NCBI GenBank assembly: GCA_038850115.1
Contig: JAWCMB010000002.1
Coordinates: 4,385-68,384 of the forward strand
Origin: Thermoproteota archaeon
GTDB taxonomy: Archaea; Thermoproteota; EX4484-205; JAAOZP01
Reading direction: 5' to 3'
Length of the DNA: 64,000 bases
Shown: positions 28,178-50,544 of the stretch, piece by piece
How positions within the stretch are numbered: position 1 is the stretch's first letter
How the letters are laid out: each line of letters starts with the position of its first letter
Notes under the pieces: generated by a model
Told to the model about the DNA's origin: nothing
Databases searched by the model: none
Seen by the model: the letters and a program-made list of their open reading frames with translations, nothing else
Program-made: the position numbers and the translations under genes

Positions 28178-28271
28178 GGGCCCGTGGCCAAGCCAGGATA
28201 AAGGCGTCGAGAGGCTTACTCGCGCAGGCCTGCGGAGCCGGAGAACCTGGGTTCAAATCCCAGCGGGCCCG
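28178..28271 (+). tRNA. tRNA-Arg(GCG) with 18-nt non-canonical intron (28210-28227, position 29/30)
   Basis: Acceptor GGGCCCG/CGGGCCC. The 3' half CTGCGGA-GCCGG-AGAAC-CTGGG-TTCAAAT-CCCAG is canonical. Removing AGAGGCTTACTCGCGCAG restores anticodon stem TCGGC/GCCGG. BHB core: central GCGT/GCGC, bulges CG|A and AG|G, inner GAG/CTC. TATA GTTTAAATAAG lies 20-30 nt upstream and a T-run follows. Confidence 0.75.
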
Positions 28272-39714: not shown

Positions 39715-39789
39715 TGCTCCGACCGGGATTTGAACCCGGGCCCCGAGCTCGAGAGGCTCGTATGCTTGACCGGGCTACACCATCGGAGC
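39715..39789 (-). tRNA. tRNA-Glu(CUC)
   Basis: 75 nt. Acceptor GCTCCGA/TCGGAGC, anticodon stem CGAGC/GCTCG, loop CT-CTC-GA, T arm CCGGG-TTCAAAT-CCCGG, discriminator A. Confidence 0.85.
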
Positions 39790-39891: not shown

Positions 39892-40518
39892 ATGAACGGG
39901 AAGGTCATAGTGGTAACCGGTACGCCCGGCACTGGAAAGACATCCCTATGTAAATACATTATTAGGAGAAGCGCCGGCTGGGTTCACCTGGACCTAGGCA
40001 GGTTTGCAGTCGAATCGAATGCTATTGTCGAGTACGACCGTTCTCTGAAAACCAGTATCGTAGACACGGGTGTTTTGAAGAAGGCCTTACGCGCACACGT
40101 TCTGAGAAACGTTGAGAAAGACGTTAGGCTTCTGATAGATGGTCACTACGCTGCCGAGGTGGCTCCGTCGAAGCATGTTGACTACTGTGTTGTCTTAAGA
40201 TGCAGGCCAGATGTTCTCTGGAGGAGGCTTAGAAGTATAAGGGGATACGTGGAGGAGAAGGCGAGGAGGAATGTTGAATCCGAGCTTACGGATTACTGCT
40301 ACCTCGCGGCGAAGCTTCACCTAAAGAACAGCAGGATCGTACAGCTGGATACCACTAGGACGAGTACCGGAAGGCTTTACACCCGGTTTATGGGGTTCTA
40401 TAAAGACGGTTTTAAGCGTGAGGGAGATAGGGTGGACTGGACTGAGTTCCTCCTGAAGCATCCTGGGAAAATGAGTTTTCTTTTCCGTGAAGATCTGTCG
40501 CGAAAAGTATTGGTTTAG
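39892..40518 (+). CDS. Fap7/adenylate kinase isoenzyme 6-like nucleotide kinase
   Basis: 208 aa. P-loop VTGTPGTGKTS with LIDGHYA.......VDYCVVLRC.PDVLWRRL...GY...K...N.ESE, typical of AK6/Fap7. Confidence 0.7.
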   Translation: MNGKVIVVTGTPGTGKTSLCKYIIRRSAGWVHLDLGRFAVESNAIVEYDRSLKTSIVDTGVLKKALRAHVLRNVEKDVRLLIDGHYAAEVAPSKHVDYCVVLRCRPDVLWRRLRSIRGYVEEKARRNVESELTDYCYLAAKLHLKNSRIVQLDTTRTSTGRLYTRFMGFYKDGFKREGDRVDWTEFLLKHPGKMSFLFREDLSRKVLV

Positions 40519-42277
40519 AAAAACCCTCCAACATTAGAAACCCATACCCTGGCGTCAGCTTCCTGAGAAGCTCGTAGTCTCTTTGTGACAGCCCCATTAC
40601 GTCTGTCAGAACCCTTGACTCCTCCCCCTCGCATATCCTGTGAGATATTTTCAGGCTTGTGGACTTCACTATCTCGGGGGAGATTTGCGACGGGAACTGT
40701 GACACCAGTATCAGGCTCTCGTTGAACTTTCTCATCTCCAGAAAAAGTTTTTCAGCAATTCCGGGTGGGGAGTCGCGCCTCCTGTACGGAAGGATGTTGT
40801 GCGCCTCCTCTATCACCGTGAAGTGGCATTTAGCACTCTTGTTTTTCAGCCTAAACTCGTAGAGCAGCGCGAGAATAAACAGTGACGCTAGTTTCCGCAC
40901 GTCCACCTCAACTATATCACCCAACTCGAAAACCACGTTTCCATCTATTATGTCCCCGATCCTCACAAGCCTATCCGTGTTACAGAATATTTCCCTGCTC
41001 TGCCCAGTCACCAGGGGCCTCAGCCGCCTTAACAATGCAAACTTCGTCTCGTTCTCGTAGAACGATTTAATGCTCCATCTTTCCAAAGTGTCTACGAAGC
41101 CTTTGAGAAGGCCCGGAGCATTAACCAAAAGCCCCTTCTCCATCAAGGTTTGCAGAAGCACCTCTCTAAACATGTATGACTGGGATGGGGTGAAACTATA
41201 TATCTGGTCAAAAATATCAGTGACTATAGCGATGTGCTCAGATAAGCTGTTGGCCTCGATGGGGTTAAGTATGTCAAGGGAAAAGGTTCCCAGTGGGAAA
41301 ACACGGCCGTTAAGCTCCTCAGCTAAACGCCCATACTCATTATGCCAGTCTAGAACCATGAACGGGTACCCGAGCCCCGCGAGCCCTCTTAAAACATGTT
41401 TCACGGTGGTCGTCTTACCAGACCCTGTTGATCCGTAGGCAGCCACATGCTTCTTAAACTTGTCCGCTTCAAGCTGCAGCGGGACTATTTTCGAACCGTT
41501 GAAAACAATCGACCCGAGGCTCAAAGTTTCCCGGCTTTCAGAGGAGCCGACAGGAGGCTGGTAGGAGGATGAGAAGAGGCAAAGATCATCGTTAGGCATG
41601 TGGGGAGTAAGCAGTTTGACTGAGTCGTCTGCTTTCAGTTTCCGCGGAAAAGAATTGTCCACCAGAATCCTCCTTAAGCATTTAAGCAGGTCTCTTTCCT
41701 TCAGCCTGACCAGCTTCAACTCTGGGAAAACAGTGTTGTAGACCGATCTTATTTTTTCAAAATCGGTTTCAAGCATCTTCGCAGCCTCATCGATCCCTCC
41801 GCGGCCCACTTCCCTGCTGATAAGGAGAACCTGCGCGAGAAGAATATCCTTATCAGGATCCCCGGATGGGAGAATATGCGTTATGAAGCTCAGTGGAACC
41901 CCTGCTTTCAAGAGGCCGCTAACAAGGCCTCTAGTCCTATGATAGAAATCCTGCCTAGCATCAACGCTCTCCGAACTCTCCTCAAGAAGTATTGAAGCGG
42001 CTCCAACAACCATTTCTGAAGAACCTGTTTTCGCGACGAAATATTCTCCGTCTCCACCGAACAGTAAACGCTCGATAAAGCGTGGACGCTTGTAGAATAG
42101 AAAAAACAGCAGGGTAAGCAGGAGGATCGTCAGGGAGACTGCTTGAAGAATCAGCGGCTGGGGAATGTTGAGGGGAAACAGAGTAGGACTAATAGTGTTT
42201 TTAAGTATGCTTATCAGCAGTACGATGGCGACAATTACGTATACCGGATCCCACTTTCTTTCCTTGCTGCTAAGCAT
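40412..42277 (-). CDS. Membrane-anchored FtsK/HerA-superfamily ATPase (VirB4/CedB-like)
   Basis: 621 aa. Two N-terminal TM helices (VYVIVAIVLLISIL; LILQAVSLTILLLTLLFFLF), Walker A YGSTGSGKTTT, Walker B HFTVIEEAHN. Start shares TAATG with the upstream ORF. Confidence 0.65.
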   Translation of the reverse strand: MLSSKERKWDPVYVIVAIVLLISILKNTISPTLFPLNIPQPLILQAVSLTILLLTLLFFLFYKRPRFIERLLFGGDGEYFVAKTGSSEMVVGAASILLEESSESVDARQDFYHRTRGLVSGLLKAGVPLSFITHILPSGDPDKDILLAQVLLISREVGRGGIDEAAKMLETDFEKIRSVYNTVFPELKLVRLKERDLLKCLRRILVDNSFPRKLKADDSVKLLTPHMPNDDLCLFSSSYQPPVGSSESRETLSLGSIVFNGSKIVPLQLEADKFKKHVAAYGSTGSGKTTTVKHVLRGLAGLGYPFMVLDWHNEYGRLAEELNGRVFPLGTFSLDILNPIEANSLSEHIAIVTDIFDQIYSFTPSQSYMFREVLLQTLMEKGLLVNAPGLLKGFVDTLERWSIKSFYENETKFALLRRLRPLVTGQSREIFCNTDRLVRIGDIIDGNVVFELGDIVEVDVRKLASLFILALLYEFRLKNKSAKCHFTVIEEAHNILPYRRRDSPPGIAEKLFLEMRKFNESLILVSQFPSQISPEIVKSTSLKISHRICEGEESRVLTDVMGLSQRDYELLRKLTPGYGFLMLEGFSKPILFATDLHGKENSFSQDASGGTQSSPPYLPHA

Positions 42278-42531
42278 TATTTAGGAGGAATAAGCCAACC
42301 GAATAGGCTGGAGCCGAGGTTACCCACTTCCTTTAACAGAGTGTCGAAGAAGCCGGAAATGTTGTCCACGATCTGCTTTGAAACCCCGAAAACAGCCCCC
42401 AGCATCACTAGAGCTAAGACTATCAGCAGCCCCTCCTCTATAAGTTGCGAAGCCTTCAACCTTGTCTTCAAGTTTTTCACCAACCCGGTAATACACTGCT
42501 CTGAAACAGATTTAAGCGCCAATGGCTTCAC
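42277..42531 (-). CDS. Small hydrophobic protein (84 aa; predicted helical hairpin)
   Basis: GTG start in a GTGA overlap with the upstream ORF. LIEEGLLIVLALVMLGAVFGV-SKQ-IVDNISGFFDTLLKEVGNLGSSLFGWLI. Confidence 0.4.
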   Translation of the reverse strand: MKPLALKSVSEQCITGLVKNLKTRLKASQLIEEGLLIVLALVMLGAVFGVSKQIVDNISGFFDTLLKEVGNLGSSLFGWLIPPK

Positions 42532-43328
42532 TTGGAGACCTGCGCCGCGAAGCCGCTGATCACGCTGTTGAACAGTAGGAAGGAAACTATGAAGCTTGAT
42601 GCAGAATAAAACAGTGTTTTTGAGAGCGTTCTACACGCTAGGGAATGGTGAACAAGCAGAGAGACGCTTAACACGTATAAGAACAGGGAGAAAGGCTGTG
42701 AAAGATCCTGCTGTAAAACAGGGTTCAGGGAGAAGGTGGAAAAAGTGTTGAGAACGGGAGCCGCGGCTGAGAGGAAACCCATTAGGGAGGCGCTTACGCT
42801 CAGCATTATCCTCGCTCTGAACCGGGCTTCGGAGAACAGGGTTCTCCTCTCGCTCTTCAAAGTCTCGTTCTCCCTAAGGAGAAACACGTAGCTCCTCAGG
42901 ATCTTTTTAGCAGAGACAGCGTCTTTAGCGAAAAGGCTTGAAACAAGCCTGATTAGAAATCCGCCTGTTCTATCAAGGGCCTTGGAGCAGGAGCTGAAAG
43001 TCTCTTCCACGGGACGCCCGTTTATGTTGTCGCGCACAGCTTTTTCGAAAAGCCAGCGGTAATCAGTCTTGAAATCCACGTTCAACAGCGTTTTGAAAAC
43101 CGAATCCTCCAGGTTTAGGTTTTCAGGGTAGTCCAACATCTTCTCCACCAGCGTTAAATCAGCCTTCCTCGACAAGTCTTCACCACAGTTTTCCTCCTTC
43201 CGAGTCAATATGAGCGTGTAGGCTAGGAGCTGAATCGAGTTTGCAACATATGGCTTGAGCCTTAAGATAGGCATTAGGAAGGCGAGTGCCCCCAGCCCGA
43301 TTACCAGAAGCAGGTGTAGCCTTTTCAA
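42528..43328 (-). CDS. Polytopic membrane protein, TadC/FlaJ-half (T2SS-F-like)
   Basis: 266 aa. Two N-terminal TM helices, a helical cytoplasmic domain of about 130 aa, and three C-terminal TM helices. Assigned from architecture and context only. Confidence 0.45.
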   Translation of the reverse strand: MKRLHLLLVIGLGALAFLMPILRLKPYVANSIQLLAYTLILTRKEENCGEDLSRKADLTLVEKMLDYPENLNLEDSVFKTLLNVDFKTDYRWLFEKAVRDNINGRPVEETFSSCSKALDRTGGFLIRLVSSLFAKDAVSAKKILRSYVFLLRENETLKSERRTLFSEARFRARIMLSVSASLMGFLSAAAPVLNTFSTFSLNPVLQQDLSQPFSLFLYVLSVSLLVHHSLACRTLSKTLFYSASSFIVSFLLFNSVISGFAAQVSK

Positions 43329-43888
43329 CCTAATAGAACACCTTTAATCCTCCCGATCTTTTTGAAAAAGATTCTGAACACCACCATGCTCGTGATGAAA
43401 AACAGCGAGAACATGATGTTTGAAGCCTGCGGCGAAAAGCTGGAGGCCAATATTATTGGTGTCGGAACCAGAAACACGTAGAAAAAGAAAACGGAGATTA
43501 TGGAGGTGAGTTTCAACGTGTATTCGCGATACTTCATTCTGGCTTTCGATTCGAGAAGCCTGAAGAAAATCAGCGTCTCCTCAGGGTTAGCCTTTCGCCC
43601 GAAGCCGCTTTGAACCACGTGGCAAATAGCTTGAACCAGATCAGGATAGCCCTGTAAAGCCTTGTTCAACCCTCTTTGGATATCTACACCGTCCAGATTA
43701 TTTTTAAGACAATTCTGCAGGCTTTTTGAAACATTCTCATAGTCTTTCGTTGAAATATCTCGAACAGTCTTATACAGGTCGTTGTAGGCGGATAAGGATA
43801 TTATTATTTCAGCCAAGATTGGAGTTATTGTTTCGCAGGAATAATCATCGTCTTCTTTAAATATTTTTCTAAAAAACATTTCAAGCAT
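43325..43888 (-). CDS. Membrane protein, TadB/FlaJ-half (T2SS-F-like)
   Basis: 187 aa. A helical cytoplasmic domain of about 110 aa (..GVDIQRGLNKALQGYPDLVQAICHVVQSG..) followed by two TM helices. Coupled to its neighbours by 1-4 nt overlaps. Confidence 0.45.
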   Translation of the reverse strand: MLEMFFRKIFKEDDDYSCETITPILAEIIISLSAYNDLYKTVRDISTKDYENVSKSLQNCLKNNLDGVDIQRGLNKALQGYPDLVQAICHVVQSGFGRKANPEETLIFFRLLESKARMKYREYTLKLTSIISVFFFYVFLVPTPIILASSFSPQASNIMFSLFFITSMVVFRIFFKKIGRIKGVLLG

Positions 43889-45774
43889 TATTCCAGCAGT
43901 CCCCCTCCGGCTTTATTAAGCATCTCCCCATGGATTTTCTGAACAAGCCTTCTGACACTACGATTATCCGGAAAACAGTTTCCCCTAACTGCACCCAGAA
44001 TAGCCTCATACTCCCTGTAAAGGTCTTTCTCGTCAAGATGGTTTAGACTCGCCAGCTTCCCGAAAACCACTGAGGCTTCTAAGCCTGGGCCGCAGCGCAG
44101 CTCGTTGGACACAGTGTTCCTAGAAAACATTTCGTTAATGTTCGAATCATCGTCCACCTCGGCTATCTCGCCAATAAACCGTTTAACACGATTATTCGAC
44201 TCCAGCTTCTTCATGACTATTATCAGGTCGAGTTCTGAAACCAGCACCCTAGGAATATTGTGGACATTCACAAGCCTTTTAATGAAGTCGCCGCTGTCTG
44301 CAGCATGCGCAGTATGCATGACCCTTAGCCCAGCGGAAACAGCACGAAACATTGCCCTCACATGGCTCCCGGTTTGAACCTCGCCAAGTATAAGGTAGGA
44401 GGGGGTCCTGTGGAGAACCTTAACTATTTCAAGCGTCTTCGTATCAGTTTTACCCCTGCTTTCAAAAGGCTCCACAATGTAGACTACTCTATGCTGGTTG
44501 AAGATCCTTGGAGGAAGGGTTTCAAGAGCATCCTCTATATGTATTATACGCCACCAAGAGGGAGCAAAGTAGCTCAGAAAGTTCAGGAGAGAGGTTTTAC
44601 CAGAGTTAGGCTCGCCCACGATGGAAATGTTAGCACGGTTAAGCATCGCGAAGACTAGGAACGCCGCGGACTCCGTTGAAAAATACCCGGATTCTAAAAG
44701 GTCTCTTAGAGAAAGTATGTCCACCATGTGCTTCCGCACGTCCAAAACGCCTCTTCCTAACGCTAGGGGAGGAATGTCTATTGAGACCCTTGTCAACACC
44801 CTGTTGAAAACAATGGAGGCTTTAATCGAAGGATTGGAGTAGTCCAAGTTTAAGCCGGATTCTCTTCTCACCAGCGTCGCAAGGCTTTCAAAGTCTTTCT
44901 CGTTAAACACTAGGTTTGTGTCCAGTCTTCCGAAATACGCATGGTCAACGTAAAGTCTTCTTCCAACATCATCAAGGAAAAAGCATTGCACATCACCATC
45001 AATTATCAAAGGGTATATTTTCGACAGGCCCATGGAGGAATATGCTGCATGCTTGACGATTGAGCTCCCAACCGGCTCCGCCATTTCCTCAGTGGTTAAA
45101 ACCTTCAAAAACCTTAAGCCAGCCTTAAACCTGTATTTAGAAACATCTTTAATCCTCCCGGTTTTAAGCATTTCTTCAGAGTATATGAAACGCAGGATTT
45201 TTGAAAGCTCCCTCTTAATCCAGAGATAATCATCCCTCTGAAAAGAAACCCTGTATAAACTTTTTTTAGAATCAATGCGATAAAAAAGATGCCCCCGCGT
45301 ATAGCTATGCTCAACCATATCCCTCCTGTAGAAGACTCTTTCAAACCCTTGGAGCCTACACTCGGAAAAAAGCTCGTTGGCAGCAGGAAGCCGTAGTAAC
45401 GGTTTCGAGTACAAGCCGCCGTAAAAGGGCCGTATTAAAAGCTTCCCACGGGCACTAGCCAAGTCAAAACCTTCTCCCCCGTATGCTTCAGAAAGCCCCC
45501 TGTAAATCCTTATTTTCTCCTTCTCAACCTCCCGCGAAAATTTTTTCATCAGCCTAACGTGTTCCCCGCGGACCTCCAGCCAACGGCCTTCAAGACAAAC
45601 CAGTATTCTTTCCGGGTGGAAAAACGTAAGCTTATACACAATATCGCAGATAAGCTGGGGATCCGTTTCAGAAGAACCGGGGGTGGAGAGCAAATATAGG
45701 ATTTTCCTCCTGCCATCCCAAAACCATTTTCTTTCAACACCAGCCTGTAGAAAACTACTTTGGACACTGCTCAT
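43888..45774 (-). CDS. Secretion-superfamily ATPase (PilB/FlaI/VirB11/TadA class) with long unassigned N-terminal region
   Basis: Walker A IVGEPNSGKTSLLN, HIEDALE, LRTPSYLILGEVQ, MHTAHA (His box). Start moved to ATG 45774 (MSSVQSS), which forms an ATGA overlap with the upstream mini-ORF. The track ORF runs to TTG 45942. Confidence 0.75.
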   Translation of the reverse strand: MSSVQSSFLQAGVERKWFWDGRRKILYLLSTPGSSETDPQLICDIVYKLTFFHPERILVCLEGRWLEVRGEHVRLMKKFSREVEKEKIRIYRGLSEAYGGEGFDLASARGKLLIRPFYGGLYSKPLLRLPAANELFSECRLQGFERVFYRRDMVEHSYTRGHLFYRIDSKKSLYRVSFQRDDYLWIKRELSKILRFIYSEEMLKTGRIKDVSKYRFKAGLRFLKVLTTEEMAEPVGSSIVKHAAYSSMGLSKIYPLIIDGDVQCFFLDDVGRRLYVDHAYFGRLDTNLVFNEKDFESLATLVRRESGLNLDYSNPSIKASIVFNRVLTRVSIDIPPLALGRGVLDVRKHMVDILSLRDLLESGYFSTESAAFLVFAMLNRANISIVGEPNSGKTSLLNFLSYFAPSWWRIIHIEDALETLPPRIFNQHRVVYIVEPFESRGKTDTKTLEIVKVLHRTPSYLILGEVQTGSHVRAMFRAVSAGLRVMHTAHAADSGDFIKRLVNVHNIPRVLVSELDLIIVMKKLESNNRVKRFIGEIAEVDDDSNINEMFSRNTVSNELRCGPGLEASVVFGKLASLNHLDEKDLYREYEAILGAVRGNCFPDNRSVRRLVQKIHGEMLNKAGGGLLE

Positions 45775-45920
45775 TTTGAAGCAACCCGTATGAACTCGTT
45801 TAGCTCGCGATACTTCTTCTCCAGATTTAGAATTCTGCTGTTTAACCTGCTTATGTTTTCCTTCAAATCCTCTATCTCCTGAAGTATAGCGTTGACCAAC
45901 AGCTCGTCCTGGGAAATCAT
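45771..45920 (-). CDS. Candidate 49-aa coiled-coil protein, first gene of the operon
   Basis: Hand translation MISQDELLVNAILQEIEDLKENISRLNSRILNLEKKYRELNEFIRVASK. TATA GATAAATA (45946-45953) lies about 29 nt upstream of the ATG. The stop overlaps the ATPase ATG. Confidence 0.4.
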   Translation of the reverse strand: MISQDELLVNAILQEIEDLKENISRLNSRILNLEKKYRELNEFIRVASK

Positions 45921-45942
45921 CTTCAAACCTAAAAGGCGTCAA

Positions 45943-46051
45943 GCGTATTTATCCGCCAATGCCGGAAACCATTGGTGATTATAAGGCGTGGAACATTACT
46001 CTACTCGGAGGTTGAAAATGAGCATAAAATTAGGTGGTTCGAAGGAGGAGG
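45943..46051. promoter_or_regulatory. Divergent promoter region with central inverted repeat
   Basis: TATA GATAAATA (minus, 45946-45953) and GATTATAAGG (plus, 45978-45987) flank the perfect inverted repeat CCAATG-N8-CATTGG (45956-45975). GGAGGAGG precedes the plus-strand ATG at 46052. Confidence 0.4.
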
Positions 46052-46201
46052 ATGGCTGTGAGCAACCTGCTTGAGAAAACACTAGTAACACTGCTTTCCG
46101 CAATTTTTCTGGGTTTAAGCTTAGCCTACGTAGCGGACCGAGTGATACCCTTGCTTAAGCAGGTATATGAAAGCGTTGTAAATCTGCTCGCCGCCGGTTA
46201 G
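46052..46201 (+). CDS. Candidate 49-aa helical-hairpin membrane mini-protein
   Basis: MAVSNLLEKTLVTLLSAIFLGLSLAYVADRVIPLLKQVYESVVNLLAAG. SD-like GGAGGAGG lies upstream. Below the ORF-track cutoff. Confidence 0.35.
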   Translation: MAVSNLLEKTLVTLLSAIFLGLSLAYVADRVIPLLKQVYESVVNLLAAG

Positions 46202-46219
46202 GAGCAGGAGGAGAACAGG

Positions 46220-46600
46220 TTGAACGAAATTCTTGAAGAACATTTGAAAGACGCGCTCTGGATATCTTTAACAGTTGCAGTAAGTTTCACACTGTTCCAA
46301 GCTACGGGCGCTGTCAGGATGATGCTTCTGAAAAGGGTTTCTGAAAGCATCGTGCTGCTGATAGGAAAGTATGCGGATCTCTCGGCAGAATACGGAGGAG
46401 AATTCACCGTGTCGATCCCAAGGACATTATTGTTTAACTATTCAATAATACTGAATGATAATGAATACTCCGTTCTGATTCAGGGAATCCAGGTGTTTAA
46501 CGGGACTGGGAAACACAGGTTTAGCAGCGTAACTTTGGAGGCCGGCGAAACATACTCCGTCAGAACGCTGGGCAATAGGATTGTTTTGACTAAACGTTGA
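46220..46600 (+). CDS. N-terminally anchored 126-aa protein (beta-rich ectodomain predicted)
   Basis: TTG start after GGAGGAG. EILEEHLKDALWISLTVAVSFTLF then ...FTVSIPRTLLFNYSIILNDNEYSVLIQGIQVFNGTG.. Confidence 0.45.
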   Translation: MNEILEEHLKDALWISLTVAVSFTLFQATGAVRMMLLKRVSESIVLLIGKYADLSAEYGGEFTVSIPRTLLFNYSIILNDNEYSVLIQGIQVFNGTGKHRFSSVTLEAGETYSVRTLGNRIVLTKR

Positions 46601-46728
46601 GCGACAAGATCCTGGATTTCCTAACGTCATCGTTCGTAATGTTCCTCCTGGTCTTGGAACTGGGGCTGGCTGTTCTGCTTACTTTAAGCAATGTTTCCAC
46701 TCTAGTTGAGCTTATTGGGCAAGCGTGA
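46597..46728 (+). CDS. Candidate 43-aa hydrophobic mini-protein
   Basis: TTG start overlapping the previous stop (gTTGA). (M)SDKILDFLTSSFVMFLLVLELGLAVLLTLSNVSTLVELIGQA. The stop overlaps the next GTG (GTGA). Confidence 0.3.
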   Translation: MSDKILDFLTSSFVMFLLVLELGLAVLLTLSNVSTLVELIGQA

Positions 46729-47120
46729 AGAACATGCTGTTCTTCGAAGATATTTTGACGGTTGCCTTAAGCACCCTCCTACTAATATTGATAATATCTG
46801 TCTCGCAGAGCGTTAAAGCAAGGTTTGGGAAACTAGACGTGATGGAAGCCGATTTAGCTTTAGGGAACAGTATTGCCGGAATACCCGTGGAGGAGCTGGG
46901 GGATGCTGAAAAACTGCTTAGCGGGGTGGTTGAAACCCTGGATTCCAGCGGAGTCAAGTGGGTCAGCATAGAGCTCTTGAGCAGGAAGCATGGAAGAATA
47001 TTCTTGGAAAATAAACGGGTTTTGGAGCGTTCGAGTGGACGGGACGCGAGATACGTTAGAATCGTCAGAGTCAGCAGCGGGGACACGGTGGTCATAACGG
47101 TAGGCGTCGAAAATGATTAA
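46725..47120 (+). CDS. N-terminally anchored 131-aa protein
   Basis: NMLFFEDILTVALSTLLLILIISV then a soluble domain. Translationally coupled to both flanking ORFs. Confidence 0.45.
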   Translation: MKNMLFFEDILTVALSTLLLILIISVSQSVKARFGKLDVMEADLALGNSIAGIPVEELGDAEKLLSGVVETLDSSGVKWVSIELLSRKHGRIFLENKRVLERSSGRDARYVRIVRVSSGDTVVITVGVEND

Positions 47121-47610
47121 AACATGGTTGATACCGATAGTTGTCTCAACGATAATCATGGTTTCTCTACTAACAGTGAACACGATGGTTTTCACTGGCT
47201 GCATTTTTCTAGAAGGCTTTTTAAAACAGAAGGCGAAGGCTGTTTTAGCCGACACTATAGCAAATGATGTTTTCAAGACTGTGGAAAGCATTGCGGAGGC
47301 AAACGTTTATTCTTCAAGAAACAATTTCTCTGAATTAGAGAAAAGCCTCGCAGGTGAGATGGAACGGTTCAGAGAAGAAATCCTTGGCAGTGAGGAATAC
47401 TTCAACAGGTGTGGAGTATCCGTCCAGTTCAACTATCGTATTGAAACCCGTGGGGAAACATGCCTAGTGGAAATCGTAAGCAGCGTTAACGTGAAAGATC
47501 TTGAAGGCTTCTTCACGATGGAACGTGCTCACGACACTGTTATAATCGCCGGGTTCTGCGCGGGTGTTGAAACGTCTGGTGAAGGTGCTTTCCCGAAAAA
47601 CTCTTCATAA
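47113..47610 (+). CDS. N-terminally anchored 165-aa protein
   Basis: MIKTWLIPIVVSTIIMVSLLTV then a mixed alpha/beta domain. Overlaps the previous ORF by 8 nt and the convergent TFB gene by 82 nt. Confidence 0.45.
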   Translation: MIKTWLIPIVVSTIIMVSLLTVNTMVFTGCIFLEGFLKQKAKAVLADTIANDVFKTVESIAEANVYSSRNNFSELEKSLAGEMERFREEILGSEEYFNRCGVSVQFNYRIETRGETCLVEIVSSVNVKDLEGFFTMERAHDTVIIAGFCAGVETSGEGAFPKNSS

Positions 47611-48479
47611 GTTTCTCTAACACTGTATTCAGCATACCCAACATACCCCGCCAGCTCCCTTTGAGTCACAGGGTTTTTAATCCTCAGCATGGCTGCGGCC
47701 TCTTTCGACGCAGCATAAATGGCTGCTGCTAAACATATCATTGGGTTTTTACCGTGAAAATAGTAGTGCCTAGACTTCAAATCGTTGAACAGTTTTACCG
47801 ACATGGTTCTAAGGGCACTGAGAAAAGCCTCTCTTTCCTCGAGACCCCTTAGCTTGCCGTTACTCCTCCTCATCACAGATATTATTTCGTTAATAGTTTT
47901 AATAGCGTCGATTTTCGCTTCAACAACCCCAATTTCCCTAGCATTATAAATCACGTTGAACAGGTCTCTCGGCTTGATCTTGAAGCCTATACTCTGAAGA
48001 TAAGCCTGGATCTTCTTGTACTGGGGAACTATGTTCAGACTGTAGGATCTTGCTGCACTGACTACGGAGTACGTTGCAATCGCCGCCAGATTTGCCTTCC
48101 TGTTTCTACCACGAGAATCATGCAGCAGGGTTAAGCCGATGCTGTGGGAAAACATTCTTATCGAGGGCCCCAGGTGGAAATTGCTACATATCTTGTCGAT
48201 TATCCATTTCAACTCGTTCTCCTTCCTCGCGGCCGAGTAGAAGATGTTTCTTTGAAGCCTGGAAAGATTGTTCCCAGGACCCTGATCCGCAATCAGGCTC
48301 CCATAACAGGAATCCTCCTGAACCACATGATCCTGATCGTAGGATGTAACATATTTGTCTAAAACATCAATAACCAAGCCGCATCTGCTGCAGACAAGCT
48401 CGTTACCCGAGTTAACCAGCTGGGAGCTGCAGCTGGGGCATTTGGCGGGAGCGGGTTCTGCGGCGGCTTCCTGCTTCAT
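47529..48479 (-). CDS. Divergent transcription factor B (TFIIB) paralog
   Basis: N-terminal Zn ribbon CPSCSSQLVNSGNELVCSRCG followed by two cyclin-like repeats (..AAIATYSVVSAAR.., ..ICLAAAIYAASKEA..TQRELA). Start set at ATG 48479, with TATA TTTTATT 24 nt upstream. The track ORF runs to 48518. Confidence 0.7.
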   Translation of the reverse strand: MKQEAAAEPAPAKCPSCSSQLVNSGNELVCSRCGLVIDVLDKYVTSYDQDHVVQEDSCYGSLIADQGPGNNLSRLQRNIFYSAARKENELKWIIDKICSNFHLGPSIRMFSHSIGLTLLHDSRGRNRKANLAAIATYSVVSAARSYSLNIVPQYKKIQAYLQSIGFKIKPRDLFNVIYNAREIGVVEAKIDAIKTINEIISVMRRSNGKLRGLEEREAFLSALRTMSVKLFNDLKSRHYYFHGKNPMICLAAAIYAASKEAAAMLRIKNPVTQRELAGYVGYAEYSVRETYEEFFGKAPSPDVSTPAQNPAIITVS

Positions 48480-48599
48480 TTTCAAAAATACTGTTTGCAG
48501 AACAATAAAAGTAGCCATGAAAAAAAGTTATGGCTTAGAATAAGCCTCTTACTTCAGAAAGTATTAAAAATAGGGAGTGTACTGTAAAAGTGATGTTAA

Positions 48600-49920: not shown

Positions 49921-50544
49921 TTAACCCGCGGCAATCGCATCGTTCTGGGGCTCTACGAAGAAAACAGAATATTTATACTGCCATGTACCGTTAGGCCAGA
50001 AGAATTTACTCCTGATCAGGACGAGCACGAAGCTGTGCCACTCAGGGGCTGTAATTACGGAGCCTTTATGCATCGCGTAGGAGAAGATGACGTTGTACGA
50101 TAAAGGGTTCATATAAGTCATGTAGACACCCTTGTAACCATCTGCACGCATCCTTTTTACGAGCGTCTCGGAGAAGTTGACGCATGTGAAGCTCTCGTTG
50201 TAGGCGAGCCCGTCAGTGTCATCATTTTCCAACCAGTGCCTGAGATCCTCGAAGCTTTCGAAGAATTTTCCGGCTTCCTCCTTCTCGAGCATCAGAGTAT
50301 AGTTGGTGGAGAGGGATTCATATTTTCTCTCCAGTTCGGCGAGAAGGCTTTGTTTCTCCTCAATAGCGTTTATCATCACACGCTGGCTTTCAACAATACC
50401 CCTGAGCCTACTGTTCTCGGCAAACAGGAAAATCGAGGAAACAAGTAATACGAGCAAGAGCACGAACTCTATTATCCTCCCCCTTTTTCTCATCCTGAAA
50501 ATGCTACGGACCCGCAGGTTAAAAATCTTGGGCAGTTCTTCCAT
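49921..50544 (-). CDS. Membrane-anchored hypothetical protein with coiled coil and Cys/His-containing ectodomain
   Basis: 207 aa. TM helix IIEFVLLLVLLVSSIFLF, a coiled-coil stretch, then ...FTCVNFSE...HSFVLV...EPQND, a possible transglutaminase/peptidase-like C-H-D arrangement (speculative). Confidence 0.35.
   Translation of the reverse strand: MEELPKIFNLRVRSIFRMRKRGRIIEFVLLLVLLVSSIFLFAENSRLRGIVESQRVMINAIEEKQSLLAELERKYESLSTNYTLMLEKEEAGKFFESFEDLRHWLENDDTDGLAYNESFTCVNFSETLVKRMRADGYKGVYMTYMNPLSYNVIFSYAMHKGSVITAPEWHSFVLVLIRSKFFWPNGTWQYKYSVFFVEPQNDAIAAG

Follow-up and report, generated by a model that had tools for sequence, protein, structure and literature searches.

What kind of machine is built from a secretion ATPase of the type IV filament class and a membrane-anchored ATPase of the HerA/VirB4 class when both are encoded in one operon? 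The question is raised by a locus at positions 39,892–47,610 of a 64,000-nt stretch of archaeal DNA, here called the window, from contig JAWCMB010000002.1 of the GenBank assembly GCA_038850115.1. A preliminary description, made from the sequence alone, had proposed that this locus fits neither the archaeal type IV pilus nor the crenarchaeal Ced/Ted DNA-import template and may encode an undescribed hybrid. The comparisons reported here establish its gene content, the families to which its genes belong and the deep conservation of their arrangement. The reading that we favour, with a probability of roughly 0.5, is a type IV filament machine of Tad/Epd kind into which a CedD-type pump is integrated, most likely for the import or exchange of DNA.

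The eleven open reading frames (ORFs) described previously were all found at the same positions in the ORF listing of the window. Six of them lie on the minus strand (45771–45926, 43888–45774, 43325–43888, 42528–43328, 42277–42531 and 40412–42277) and encode proteins of 51, 628 (counted from ATG), 187, 266, 84 and 621 aa, respectively, while five occupy the plus strand (46034/46052–46201, 46220–46600, 46597–46728, 46725–47120 and 47113–47610). Direct reading of the sequence also bore out the five start/stop junctions quoted for the minus strand, namely ATGA at 45771–45774, TAATG at 43886–43890, TTGA at 43325–43328, GTGA at 42528–42531 and TAATG at 42275–42279.

The first of the two motors, 628 aa long (43888–45774, minus strand), is a secretion ATPase that belongs to the FlaI/GspE2/CpaF (T2SSE) family and carries an N-terminal extension specific to its lineage. 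Pfam T2SSE (PF00437) matches it at 52.7 bits and 3.5e-14, against a gathering cut-off of 24.9 bits. In NCBIfam, the archaellum ATPase FlaI (1.6e-28) ranks before TadA (5e-16) and VirB11 (5.4e-15), and among sequences of the PDB, GspE2 of A. fulgidus (2oap, 1.5e-26) ranks before FlaI (6e-21) and CpaF (3.6e-15); among plasmid records, the top matches are CpaF genes of Tad loci. FlaI residues 116–420 align with residues 239–545 of the protein, so that only its first ∼120–240 aa lack an assignment, and not the first ∼400 as had been thought. As judged from these matches, the protein is the T2SSE assembly ATPase expected of a member of the type IV filament superfamily. Relatives with 33% identity, the ∼700-aa T2SSE ATPases P0026 and P0027, were observed in two loci (L003 and L005) where neither a CedD-like gene nor a prepilin was detectable; a TFIIB gene lies ∼9 kb upstream in L003, and these two loci may represent a sister system.

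The second motor, a protein of 621 aa (40412–42277, minus strand), comprises two transmembrane (TM) helices, an alpha/beta N-terminal domain and a P-loop domain of the HerA/VirB4 fold. Pfam DUF87, the central domain of HerA, matches it at 6.5e-14 (53 bits; gathering cut-off 23.2 bits). The top NCBIfam match is the 'DNA-translocating ATPase CedD' (2.3e-53, 181.6 bits, residues 254–583; equivalog model NF053655, cut-off 600 bits), and the runners-up are HerA with 44 bits and VirB4 models with at most 37 bits. CedD was the best NCBIfam family for every member of the 621-aa family tested (136–254 bits), one of which covers positions 12–520 of the 527 in the CedD model, and on these scores the family is a CedD-like clade below the CedD equivalog level. 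The CedB model of NCBIfam gave no match to the 621-aa protein at E ≤ 1.

An AlphaFold2 model of the 621-aa protein, computed from 30 homologs, reached a predicted local distance difference test (pLDDT) score of ∼85–94 over residues 250–595 and predicts N-terminal helices at 11–32 and 40–62, in keeping with the two TM helices noted before. Foldseek searches of the PDB with this model retrieved hexameric HerA translocases (E ∼4e-17) and aligned it with the VirB4 C-terminal domain 4ag5 with a TM-score of 0.73–0.76 (target-normalised) and a root-mean-square deviation of 4.5 Å. GSTGSGKTT and EEAHN are invariant throughout the family. Both the profiles and the predicted fold thus place the protein inside the HerA/VirB4 clade of the FtsK-HerA superfamily. 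All the motifs on which the two ATPases had first been recognized were confirmed, with the Walker A box GEPNSGKT and the His box MHTAHA found in the 628-aa protein, and GSTGSGKTT and FTVIEEAH in the 621-aa protein. On the Pfam, NCBIfam, PDB and Foldseek results, the earlier assignment of two ATPase classes, one FlaI/PilB-like and one membrane-anchored and HerA/VirB4-like, to a single tightly packed operon was correct. CedD itself is a TM-anchored, UV-induced paralog of CedB, and DNA import in Saccharolobus and Sulfolobus requires it (PMC11868833, PMC11823120).

What the first motor might assemble is indicated by the 84-aa ORF located immediately before the CedD-like gene (42277–42531, minus strand). 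This ORF had been regarded as a hydrophobic protein without an obvious class III signal peptide, but an alignment of its family, detected in 73 loci by iterated hidden Markov model searches of fetched loci, revealed a short basic leader followed by a near-invariant motif, [KR][KR][GA]|[ASV]-Q-[LI]-[IV]-E-E-[AG]-L-L, a hydrophobic helix and an amphipathic C-terminal helix. The window sequence at this motif is ...TRLKA|SQLIEEGLLIVLALVMLGAV, which puts K at −2, A at −1 and E at +5; cleavage at the predicted site (...RLKA|SQLIEEGLL) would leave a mature protein of ∼57 aa. The register is that of bacterial Flp (G|ATAIEYGLI in four Tad loci), and hhalign aligned the family with four bacterial Flp sequences over 73 columns, leader included, with a probability of 92.4% and an E-value of 5e-7 (reversed control, 0.087). 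On the strength of this signature, shared by the 73 loci (basic leader, G/A at −1, E at +5), the protein is best described as a Flp-like prepilin with a class III signal peptide. Since conservation among orthologs begins ∼16–17 codons inside the ORF, the GTGA overlap, though present in the sequence, is doubtful as the real start; the true one is probably TTG 42483 or GTG 42480, which would give a protein of ∼67 aa with a leader of ∼10 residues. The 'helical-hairpin mini-proteins' of the preliminary description were not borne out, given that the 84-aa protein is Flp-like and not VirB2/CedA1-like. For the same reason, the filament module fits the Tad/Epd type IV filament template, and the locus as a whole, far from fitting neither template, corresponds to a type IV filament system with one extra CedD-like ATPase.

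Between the secretion ATPase and the prepilin, two genes encode the putative platform. The 187-aa product (43325–43888, minus strand) shows a cytoplasmic helical domain and two TM helices, and the 266-aa product (42528–43328, minus strand) a TM helix, a helical domain and three further TM helices. Taking as references the sequences of five bacterial Tad loci, hhalign matched the 266-aa family to the five TadB sequences over ∼130 columns of the T2SSF domain with a probability of 89.6% and an E-value of 1.9e-6. Direct comparison of the 187-aa family with TadB/TadC was not significant (E 0.05–0.09). The link to TadC goes through the thaumarchaeal family found at the same gene position, which matches that of the window with E 2.7e-5 and TadC with a probability of 64% and E 6.3e-5. 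Controls with reversed alignments and six unrelated families gave E-values of at least 0.04. Neither protein matched a Pfam, NCBIfam or PHROG family; the profile of the 266-aa family searched against PDB sequences, as well as Pfam scans of its individual members, returned noise only, and hmmsearch of this profile against 1.84 billion representatives found just 11 relatives and no bridge to T2SSF. An AlphaFold2 model of the 266-aa protein from a 25-sequence alignment was unusable (pLDDT 52). Gene position and topology fit the two-gene platform of Tad/Epd systems. Taken together, the earlier 'split TadB/C-like' label is moderately supported by hhalign (E 1.9e-6 and 6e-5) and not by HMMER, and a TadB/TadC-like nature of the pair appears probable but not proven.

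These assignments also bear on the hybrid apparatus originally envisaged, a conjugation-type machine related to type IV secretion systems (T4SSs) and to Ced/Ted, with the 628-aa protein as VirB11, the small proteins as VirB2/CedA1-like subunits and the polytopic proteins as VirB6/VirB3-like channel components. In its favour, the 628-aa protein has a secondary match to VirB11, the 621-aa protein has a VirB4-like fold, the order of a small TM protein gene immediately before one of the VirB4 class is reminiscent of virB3-virB4, and both toolkits are mixed in thaumarchaeal integrative and conjugative elements (ICEs). However, FlaI, GspE2 and CpaF outscore VirB11 by far, the small protein carries the Flp G/A|xxxxE[EY] signature and aligns with Flp including its leader, and the 266-aa family aligns with the T2SSF domain of TadB. 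Moreover, the CedB model is unmatched and the polytopic proteins match no conjugation or DNA-import family of NCBIfam, a library in which the presence of CedA and VirB6 models is unconfirmed. The locus holds one HerA-class ATPase only, and neither a VirB4 plus VirD4 pair nor an integrase, as conjugative T4SSs and ICEs would have. We consider such an apparatus improbable.

The association of both motors is not a peculiarity of one contig. The first homologs of the two ATPases came exclusively from metagenome-assembled genomes (MAGs) of Thermoproteota and Brockarchaeota, the 266-aa protein being identical to one of an NCBI 'Thermoproteota archaeon' MAG, and the entire gene order is kept in loci whose orthologs share 54% and ∼30% identity. 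Scanning the CedD-like alignment against one genome per species yielded 78 loci. They include ∼15 of Brockarchaeota type (58–74% identity), ∼55 in MAGs labelled Nitrososphaerota or Thaumarchaeota from soil, peat and hot springs (29–38%), several Thermoprotei MAGs (Guaymas, Auka), one Bathyarchaeota MAG and three crenarchaeal loci (Hyperthermus, Pyrodictiaceae and Pyrobaculum). Among the 65 loci with at least 4.5 kb of upstream sequence, a same-strand T2SSE ATPase occurs in 61, a prepilin directly upstream of the CedD-like gene in 58, the 266-aa family in 56 and a gene for the transcription factor TFB upstream of the cluster in 58; downstream, a convergent AAA_18 kinase is present in 62 of the 72 loci with downstream sequence. 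The order recurring in ∼60 genomes, all MAGs assigned to Brockarchaeota, Nitrososphaerota/Thaumarchaeota or Thermoprotei, begins with TFB and the five small genes of the divergent operon and continues with the ATPase, the TadC-like, TadB-like, Flp-like and CedD-like genes and the convergent AAA_18 kinase, an arrangement far beyond chance. Around the CedD-type genes of Hyperthermus, Pyrodictiaceae and Pyrobaculum, neither a T2SSE gene nor a prepilin nor any other type IV filament partner was found. The Bathyarchaeota MAG HyVt-197 (locus L060, 5289–7272) keeps only the Flp-like prepilin and the CedD-like ATPase, directly after TGT at the same Lsm/PAC2 chromosomal site; the T2SSE ATPase, the platform genes, the TFB and the divergent operon are all missing, and the locus looks like a natural 'minimal pair'.

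Could the cluster instead be the remnant or cargo of an integrated mobile element, such as an ICE, a plasmid or a provirus, with its ATPases serving transfer or genome packaging? In favour of this, archaeal ICEs and viruses typically carry ATPases of the HerA/FtsK class and TFIIB paralogs, a tRNA-Glu gene is found 100 nt past the AAA_18 gene, and some weak PHROG matches were obtained. Against this, the flanks of the window cluster (PAC2-Lsm-TFB on one side and AAA_18 on the other) follow the order of a distant Nitrososphaeria MAG, L048, which shows PAC2, TGT, Lsm and TFB on one side and the AAA_18 kinase, an HtrA-like protease, an M48 peptidase, TatC, TIM and Sua5 on the other; PAC2, Lsm, TFB and AAA_18 are thus common to lineages with ∼30% protein identity. 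The flanks contain no integrase, ParB, VirD4, replication or capsid genes, and the GC content is flat at 0.45–0.49 over the cluster and uniform across the window. Because the housekeeping flanks are conserved and free of integrase, ParB, VirD4 and replication genes, the cluster is ancient, chromosomal and vertically inherited, and its seat among housekeeping genes argues against a mobile island, an origin that we rejected on synteny and composition and regard as very improbable. An ancient domestication of a mobile module is possible, and would be compatible with the filament machine that we favour.

The minus-strand operon starts with a coiled-coil protein of 49–51 aa (45771–45926, minus strand), whose orthologs are confined to 16 loci of Brockarchaeota type. 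Upstream of it, a 125-nt intergenic region (45927–46051) with two A/T-rich, TATA-like elements (∼45946–45954 and ∼45978–45985) presumably acts as a bidirectional promoter. The five plus-strand genes of the divergent operon, preceded by GGAGG motifs of good quality, encode a Flp-sized leaderless protein of ∼48 aa (46052–46201) with MAV-SNLLEK, a TM helix and an amphipathic helix, its orthologs starting with MSNLLEK; a leaderless pilin-like protein of 126 aa (46220–46600) with M-NEILEE, a TM helix and a beta-rich domain, whose TTG start lies 6 nt after GGAGGAG; a single-TM mini-protein of 43 aa (46597–46728) beginning with MSDKLLDF...; and two N-terminal-TM proteins without family match, one of 131 aa (46725–47120; orthologs start with MQFLEG...) and one of 165 aa closing the operon (47113–47610), with orthologs in 15 Brockarchaeota-type loci.

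In agreement with what had been noted before, all five products open directly with a hydrophobic helix, which carries an acidic residue near position 5 (for example MSNLLEK, MNEILEEH, MSDKLLDF and MQFLEG). Such N-termini look like those of already mature pilins, recalling the unprocessed archaellar FlaF/FlaG or the TadE/F pseudopilins. None of the five matched PHROGs, Pfam or NCBIfam, and hhalign against the 84-aa family or Flp was not significant (E 0.015 for the ∼48-aa protein against the 84-aa family); because of these null comparisons, we call them pilin-like by their N-terminal pattern only. The 126-aa family is the sole one of this operon detectable beyond the Brockarchaeota lineage (L004, L047 and L065–L069). 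Thaumarchaeal loci display a matching divergent gene set, with products starting MVELVEY... (119–130 aa) and MPSETIE... (∼125 aa), a 40–50-aa TM peptide at the position of the 43-aa gene in the window, a protein of ∼120 aa starting MRxLDIAVAA... and another of 260–290 aa.

Facing the divergent operon is a 329-aa TFB/TFIIB paralog with an N-terminal Zn ribbon (47529–48518, minus strand; Pfam Zn_Ribbon_TF, 3.4e-5), which probably controls the expression of the cluster. Its thaumarchaeal and Thermoprotei counterparts match the TFIIB repeat; the window protein is strongly diverged, the Zn ribbon alone being significant in Pfam and the cyclin repeats falling below, and its gene overlaps the 165-aa gene convergently by 82 nt (47529–47610). 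Despite this divergence, the location of a TFB beside the cluster is maintained over phylum-level distances. At the opposite end, the AAA_18 kinase (39892–40518, plus strand; Pfam AAA_18, 4.4e-18), adenylate-kinase/Fap7-like, is probably a housekeeping neighbour rather than a component. Its gene and the CedD-like gene share a convergent 3′ overlap of 107 nt (40412–40518), within which the C-terminal tail of the 621-aa ATPase is unconserved and of low pLDDT; overlap or abutment of this pair was observed in 62 of 72 related loci. A tRNA-Glu(CTC) gene lies at the cluster edge (39715–39789, minus strand), ∼100 nt from the AAA_18 gene, and further away a tRNA-Lys(CTT) gene (28178–28271, plus strand) measures 94 nt, over the standard tRNA length, so that an intron is probable. 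Just past PAC2, a 207-aa ORF (49921–50544, minus strand) encodes an N-terminal TM helix and a coiled-coil, with no Pfam match.

How might these parts work together? Joining a Tad/Flp-type machine to a membrane-anchored relative of CedD makes the locus a candidate pilus-assisted DNA-uptake apparatus. It would consist of the FlaI/CpaF-class ATPase, two single-domain platform proteins, one Flp-like prepilin and the leaderless pilin-like proteins, with the CedD-type ATPase as a fixed core part, whose gene comes directly after that of the pilin and is translationally coupled to it. We propose that a prepilin peptidase encoded elsewhere trims the 84-aa prepilin, and that the 628-aa ATPase, acting on the TadB/C-like platform, builds from it a short pilus or pseudopilus; this filament might touch another cell or free DNA, which a hexameric CedD-like pump at the same membrane site would then draw inwards, in parallel with CedD in the DNA import of Sulfolobales and with the Com pseudopilus and translocase in bacterial competence. 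Filament formation, the hexameric state, the DNA substrate and the inward direction are inferences. DNA import or exchange is favoured because, among the close relatives of the pump, the only one characterised is an ATPase for DNA import, because HerA, VirB4 and FtsK move DNA or build DNA-transfer machines, and because archaeal ICEs, which themselves transfer DNA, show the same combination of tools.

Several observations weigh against this reading. That DNA would be the substrate is suggested by analogy. No nuclease, ComEC-, DprA- or ParB-like genes are conserved beside the cluster, and none of the Ced/Ted partners (CedB/TedB, CedA/TedA, CedA1/TedC) was detected at the locus with NCBIfam, with the above reserve on its CedA and VirB6 models. 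The score of the 621-aa protein lies far under the equivalog cut-off of CedD, and its N-terminal 250 aa fall outside the CedD model alignment. On the filament side, the platform assignment comes solely from hhalign and from reference alignments of few sequences, and no link to T2SSF emerged from HMMER searches of Pfam, the PDB and 1.8 billion representatives; the GxGD[..][KR] motif of A24 prepilin peptidases occurs in no ORF of at least 60 aa in the 64-kb window; and the five divergent proteins have no class III or basic leader.

Some of the same facts would suit an ordinary Tad/Epd adhesion or surface pilus, in which the CedD-like protein would act not as a DNA pump but as an additional motor or accessory ATPase, and might serve retraction, the insertion or extraction of the leaderless pilin-like proteins, or the 'secondary ATPase' slot held by FlaH/TadZ-like proteins. 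The core parts of a type IV filament are all present, Epd and Tad normally pair the main ATPase with a neighbouring secondary one (PMC6668835), and archaeal type IV pili retract without a known PilT, according to work cited in PMC11823120. In addition, no genes for DNA processing are linked to the cluster, whose tightest linkage is that between the pilin and the CedD-like gene. However, the secondary ATPases known so far belong to the KaiC/RecA or MinD type, none of them being a TM-anchored pump of the HerA/VirB4 fold, and the nearest characterised relatives, CedD, CedB, VirB4 and HerA, act on DNA or in DNA transfer (PMC11868833). An accessory motor of this kind is the main rival to the favoured reading, though it seems to us the less likely of the two.

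Should the favoured reading be extended to its full consequence, Nitrososphaerota and Brockarchaeota would possess a native, competence-like machine for DNA uptake or exchange encoded in one operon, in which the Tad-like pilus and the CedD-type pump act together and the pilin is coupled physically to the pump; crenarchaeal CedD would descend from, or share ancestry with, such a pilus-coupled pump. We put this forward tentatively, as a possibility with the odds somewhat against it. If true, these two lineages, which include relatives of ammonia oxidisers, would gain their first proposed system dedicated to DNA import, and the operon would bear on DNA uptake and exchange in archaea outside Sulfolobales and Thermoproteales, as well as on the mechanism of CedD. 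With ∼12 genes joining a CedD-type ATPase, a minimal Tad-like pilus and a dedicated TFB, the operon offers a compact and testable candidate for pilus-coupled DNA import in widespread archaea of soil, peat and hot springs, and links a type IV pilus to Ced, two systems that cooperate in Sulfolobus but are separately encoded there. Even if the substrate is not DNA, an obligatory second motor of the HerA/VirB4 fold would constitute a new architecture for the type IV filament superfamily.

Among the closest known systems are Tad/Epd-like machines, which have two single-T2SSF-domain platform genes and unusually short pilins, the bacterial Tad/Flp (type IVc) pili being derived from archaeal Epd-like pili (Denise et al. 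2019, PMC6668835). The locus shares with them an ATPase of the CpaF/FlaI class, a very short prepilin with G/A|xxxxE[YE] and extra small pilin-like proteins, and its two adjacent short genes, each probably equivalent to one T2SSF domain, would match their platform pair. It differs in that a TM-anchored CedD-like ATPase, coupled to the pilin gene, replaces the secondary ATPase of TadZ/FlaH type, that the platform proteins are too diverged for Pfam T2SSF, that the pilin-like minor proteins are leaderless and that the locus has no peptidase gene.

With CedD proper (Saci_0667/SiRe_1715) the pump shares the TM helices, an N-terminal domain and a HerA/VirB4-like ATPase. CedD belongs to the Ced DNA-import system of Sulfolobales, and TedD is found in Thermoproteales (PMC11868833, PMC11823120). 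In Crenarchaeota, to which these two studies are confined and in which they report no linkage to pili, CedD has as partners CedA, CedA1 and CedB (homologs of VirB6, VirB2 and VirB4), unlinked to type IV pilus genes, whereas here its partners are components of a type IV filament. The same functional logic, in which a type IV filament works with an ATPase on the cytoplasmic face that carries DNA through the membrane, is displayed by the ComG pseudopilus with ComEC/ComFA in bacterial competence and by the uptake type IV pilus with the HerA-like TdtA in Thermus transjugation, though as an analogy only, since ComFA is of DEAD-box type, the translocases are not homologous and the cluster has no ComEC-like channel.

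The hybrid nearest to this locus among those described, the conjugation module of thaumarchaeal ICEs, combines VirB4, VirD4, VirB6, VirB3, TadC, FlaI/PilT, a prepilin peptidase and pilins, always with TFIIB (Krupovic et al. 2019, PMC6563490; Abby et al. 2018, PMC5797428). A HerA/VirB4-superfamily ATPase accompanied by FlaI, TadC, pilins and a TFIIB paralog is hence common to both, within the same broad lineage. Those ICEs, however, are mobile islands of 40–65 kb with integrases, VirB4 plus VirD4, VirB6/VirB3, ParB and replication genes in unconserved order, whereas the present cluster covers ∼8 kb in strict synteny, is surrounded by housekeeping genes and contains only one CedD-like ATPase. 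Subsystem (subclade) 4D of Makarova, in turn, contains an ATPase, a diverged TadC-like protein and TFIIB without pilins (PMC4858521). The present locus resembles it in its secretion ATPase, its short and strongly diverged, probably TadC-like membrane proteins and its neighbouring TFIIB paralog, but 4D is specific to Pyrobaculum/Thermoproteus and has only two components, with no pilin and no HerA-class ATPase reported.

The text of the 2016 census of archaeal type IV pili (PMC4858521) names no HerA/VirB4-class partner, and a 2026 preprint on archaeal type IV filament diversity mentions none. Supplementary Table S4 of that census (Makarova 2016) does list, for Cenarchaeum symbiosum (NC_014820, 635182–639097), FlaI, a 2-TM ORF and a 634-aa arCOG00280 'HerA helicase', with FlaI and HerA divergent, not co-directional, next to amoC and without comment; these genes may represent the same system, rearranged, in an ammonia oxidiser. 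As to the 'undescribed hybrid' of the preliminary description, the mixture of VirB4/VirD4 with FlaI, TadC, pilins and TFIIB was already known from thaumarchaeal ICEs (PMC6563490), while the compact chromosomal operon is apparently undescribed: no description of a compact, chromosomal and widely conserved operon with a CedD-type ATPase was found in the searchable literature. The locus is of a known kind, a type IV filament system, and what is new in it is the fixed CedD-like ATPase, widespread in Nitrososphaerota and Brockarchaeota.

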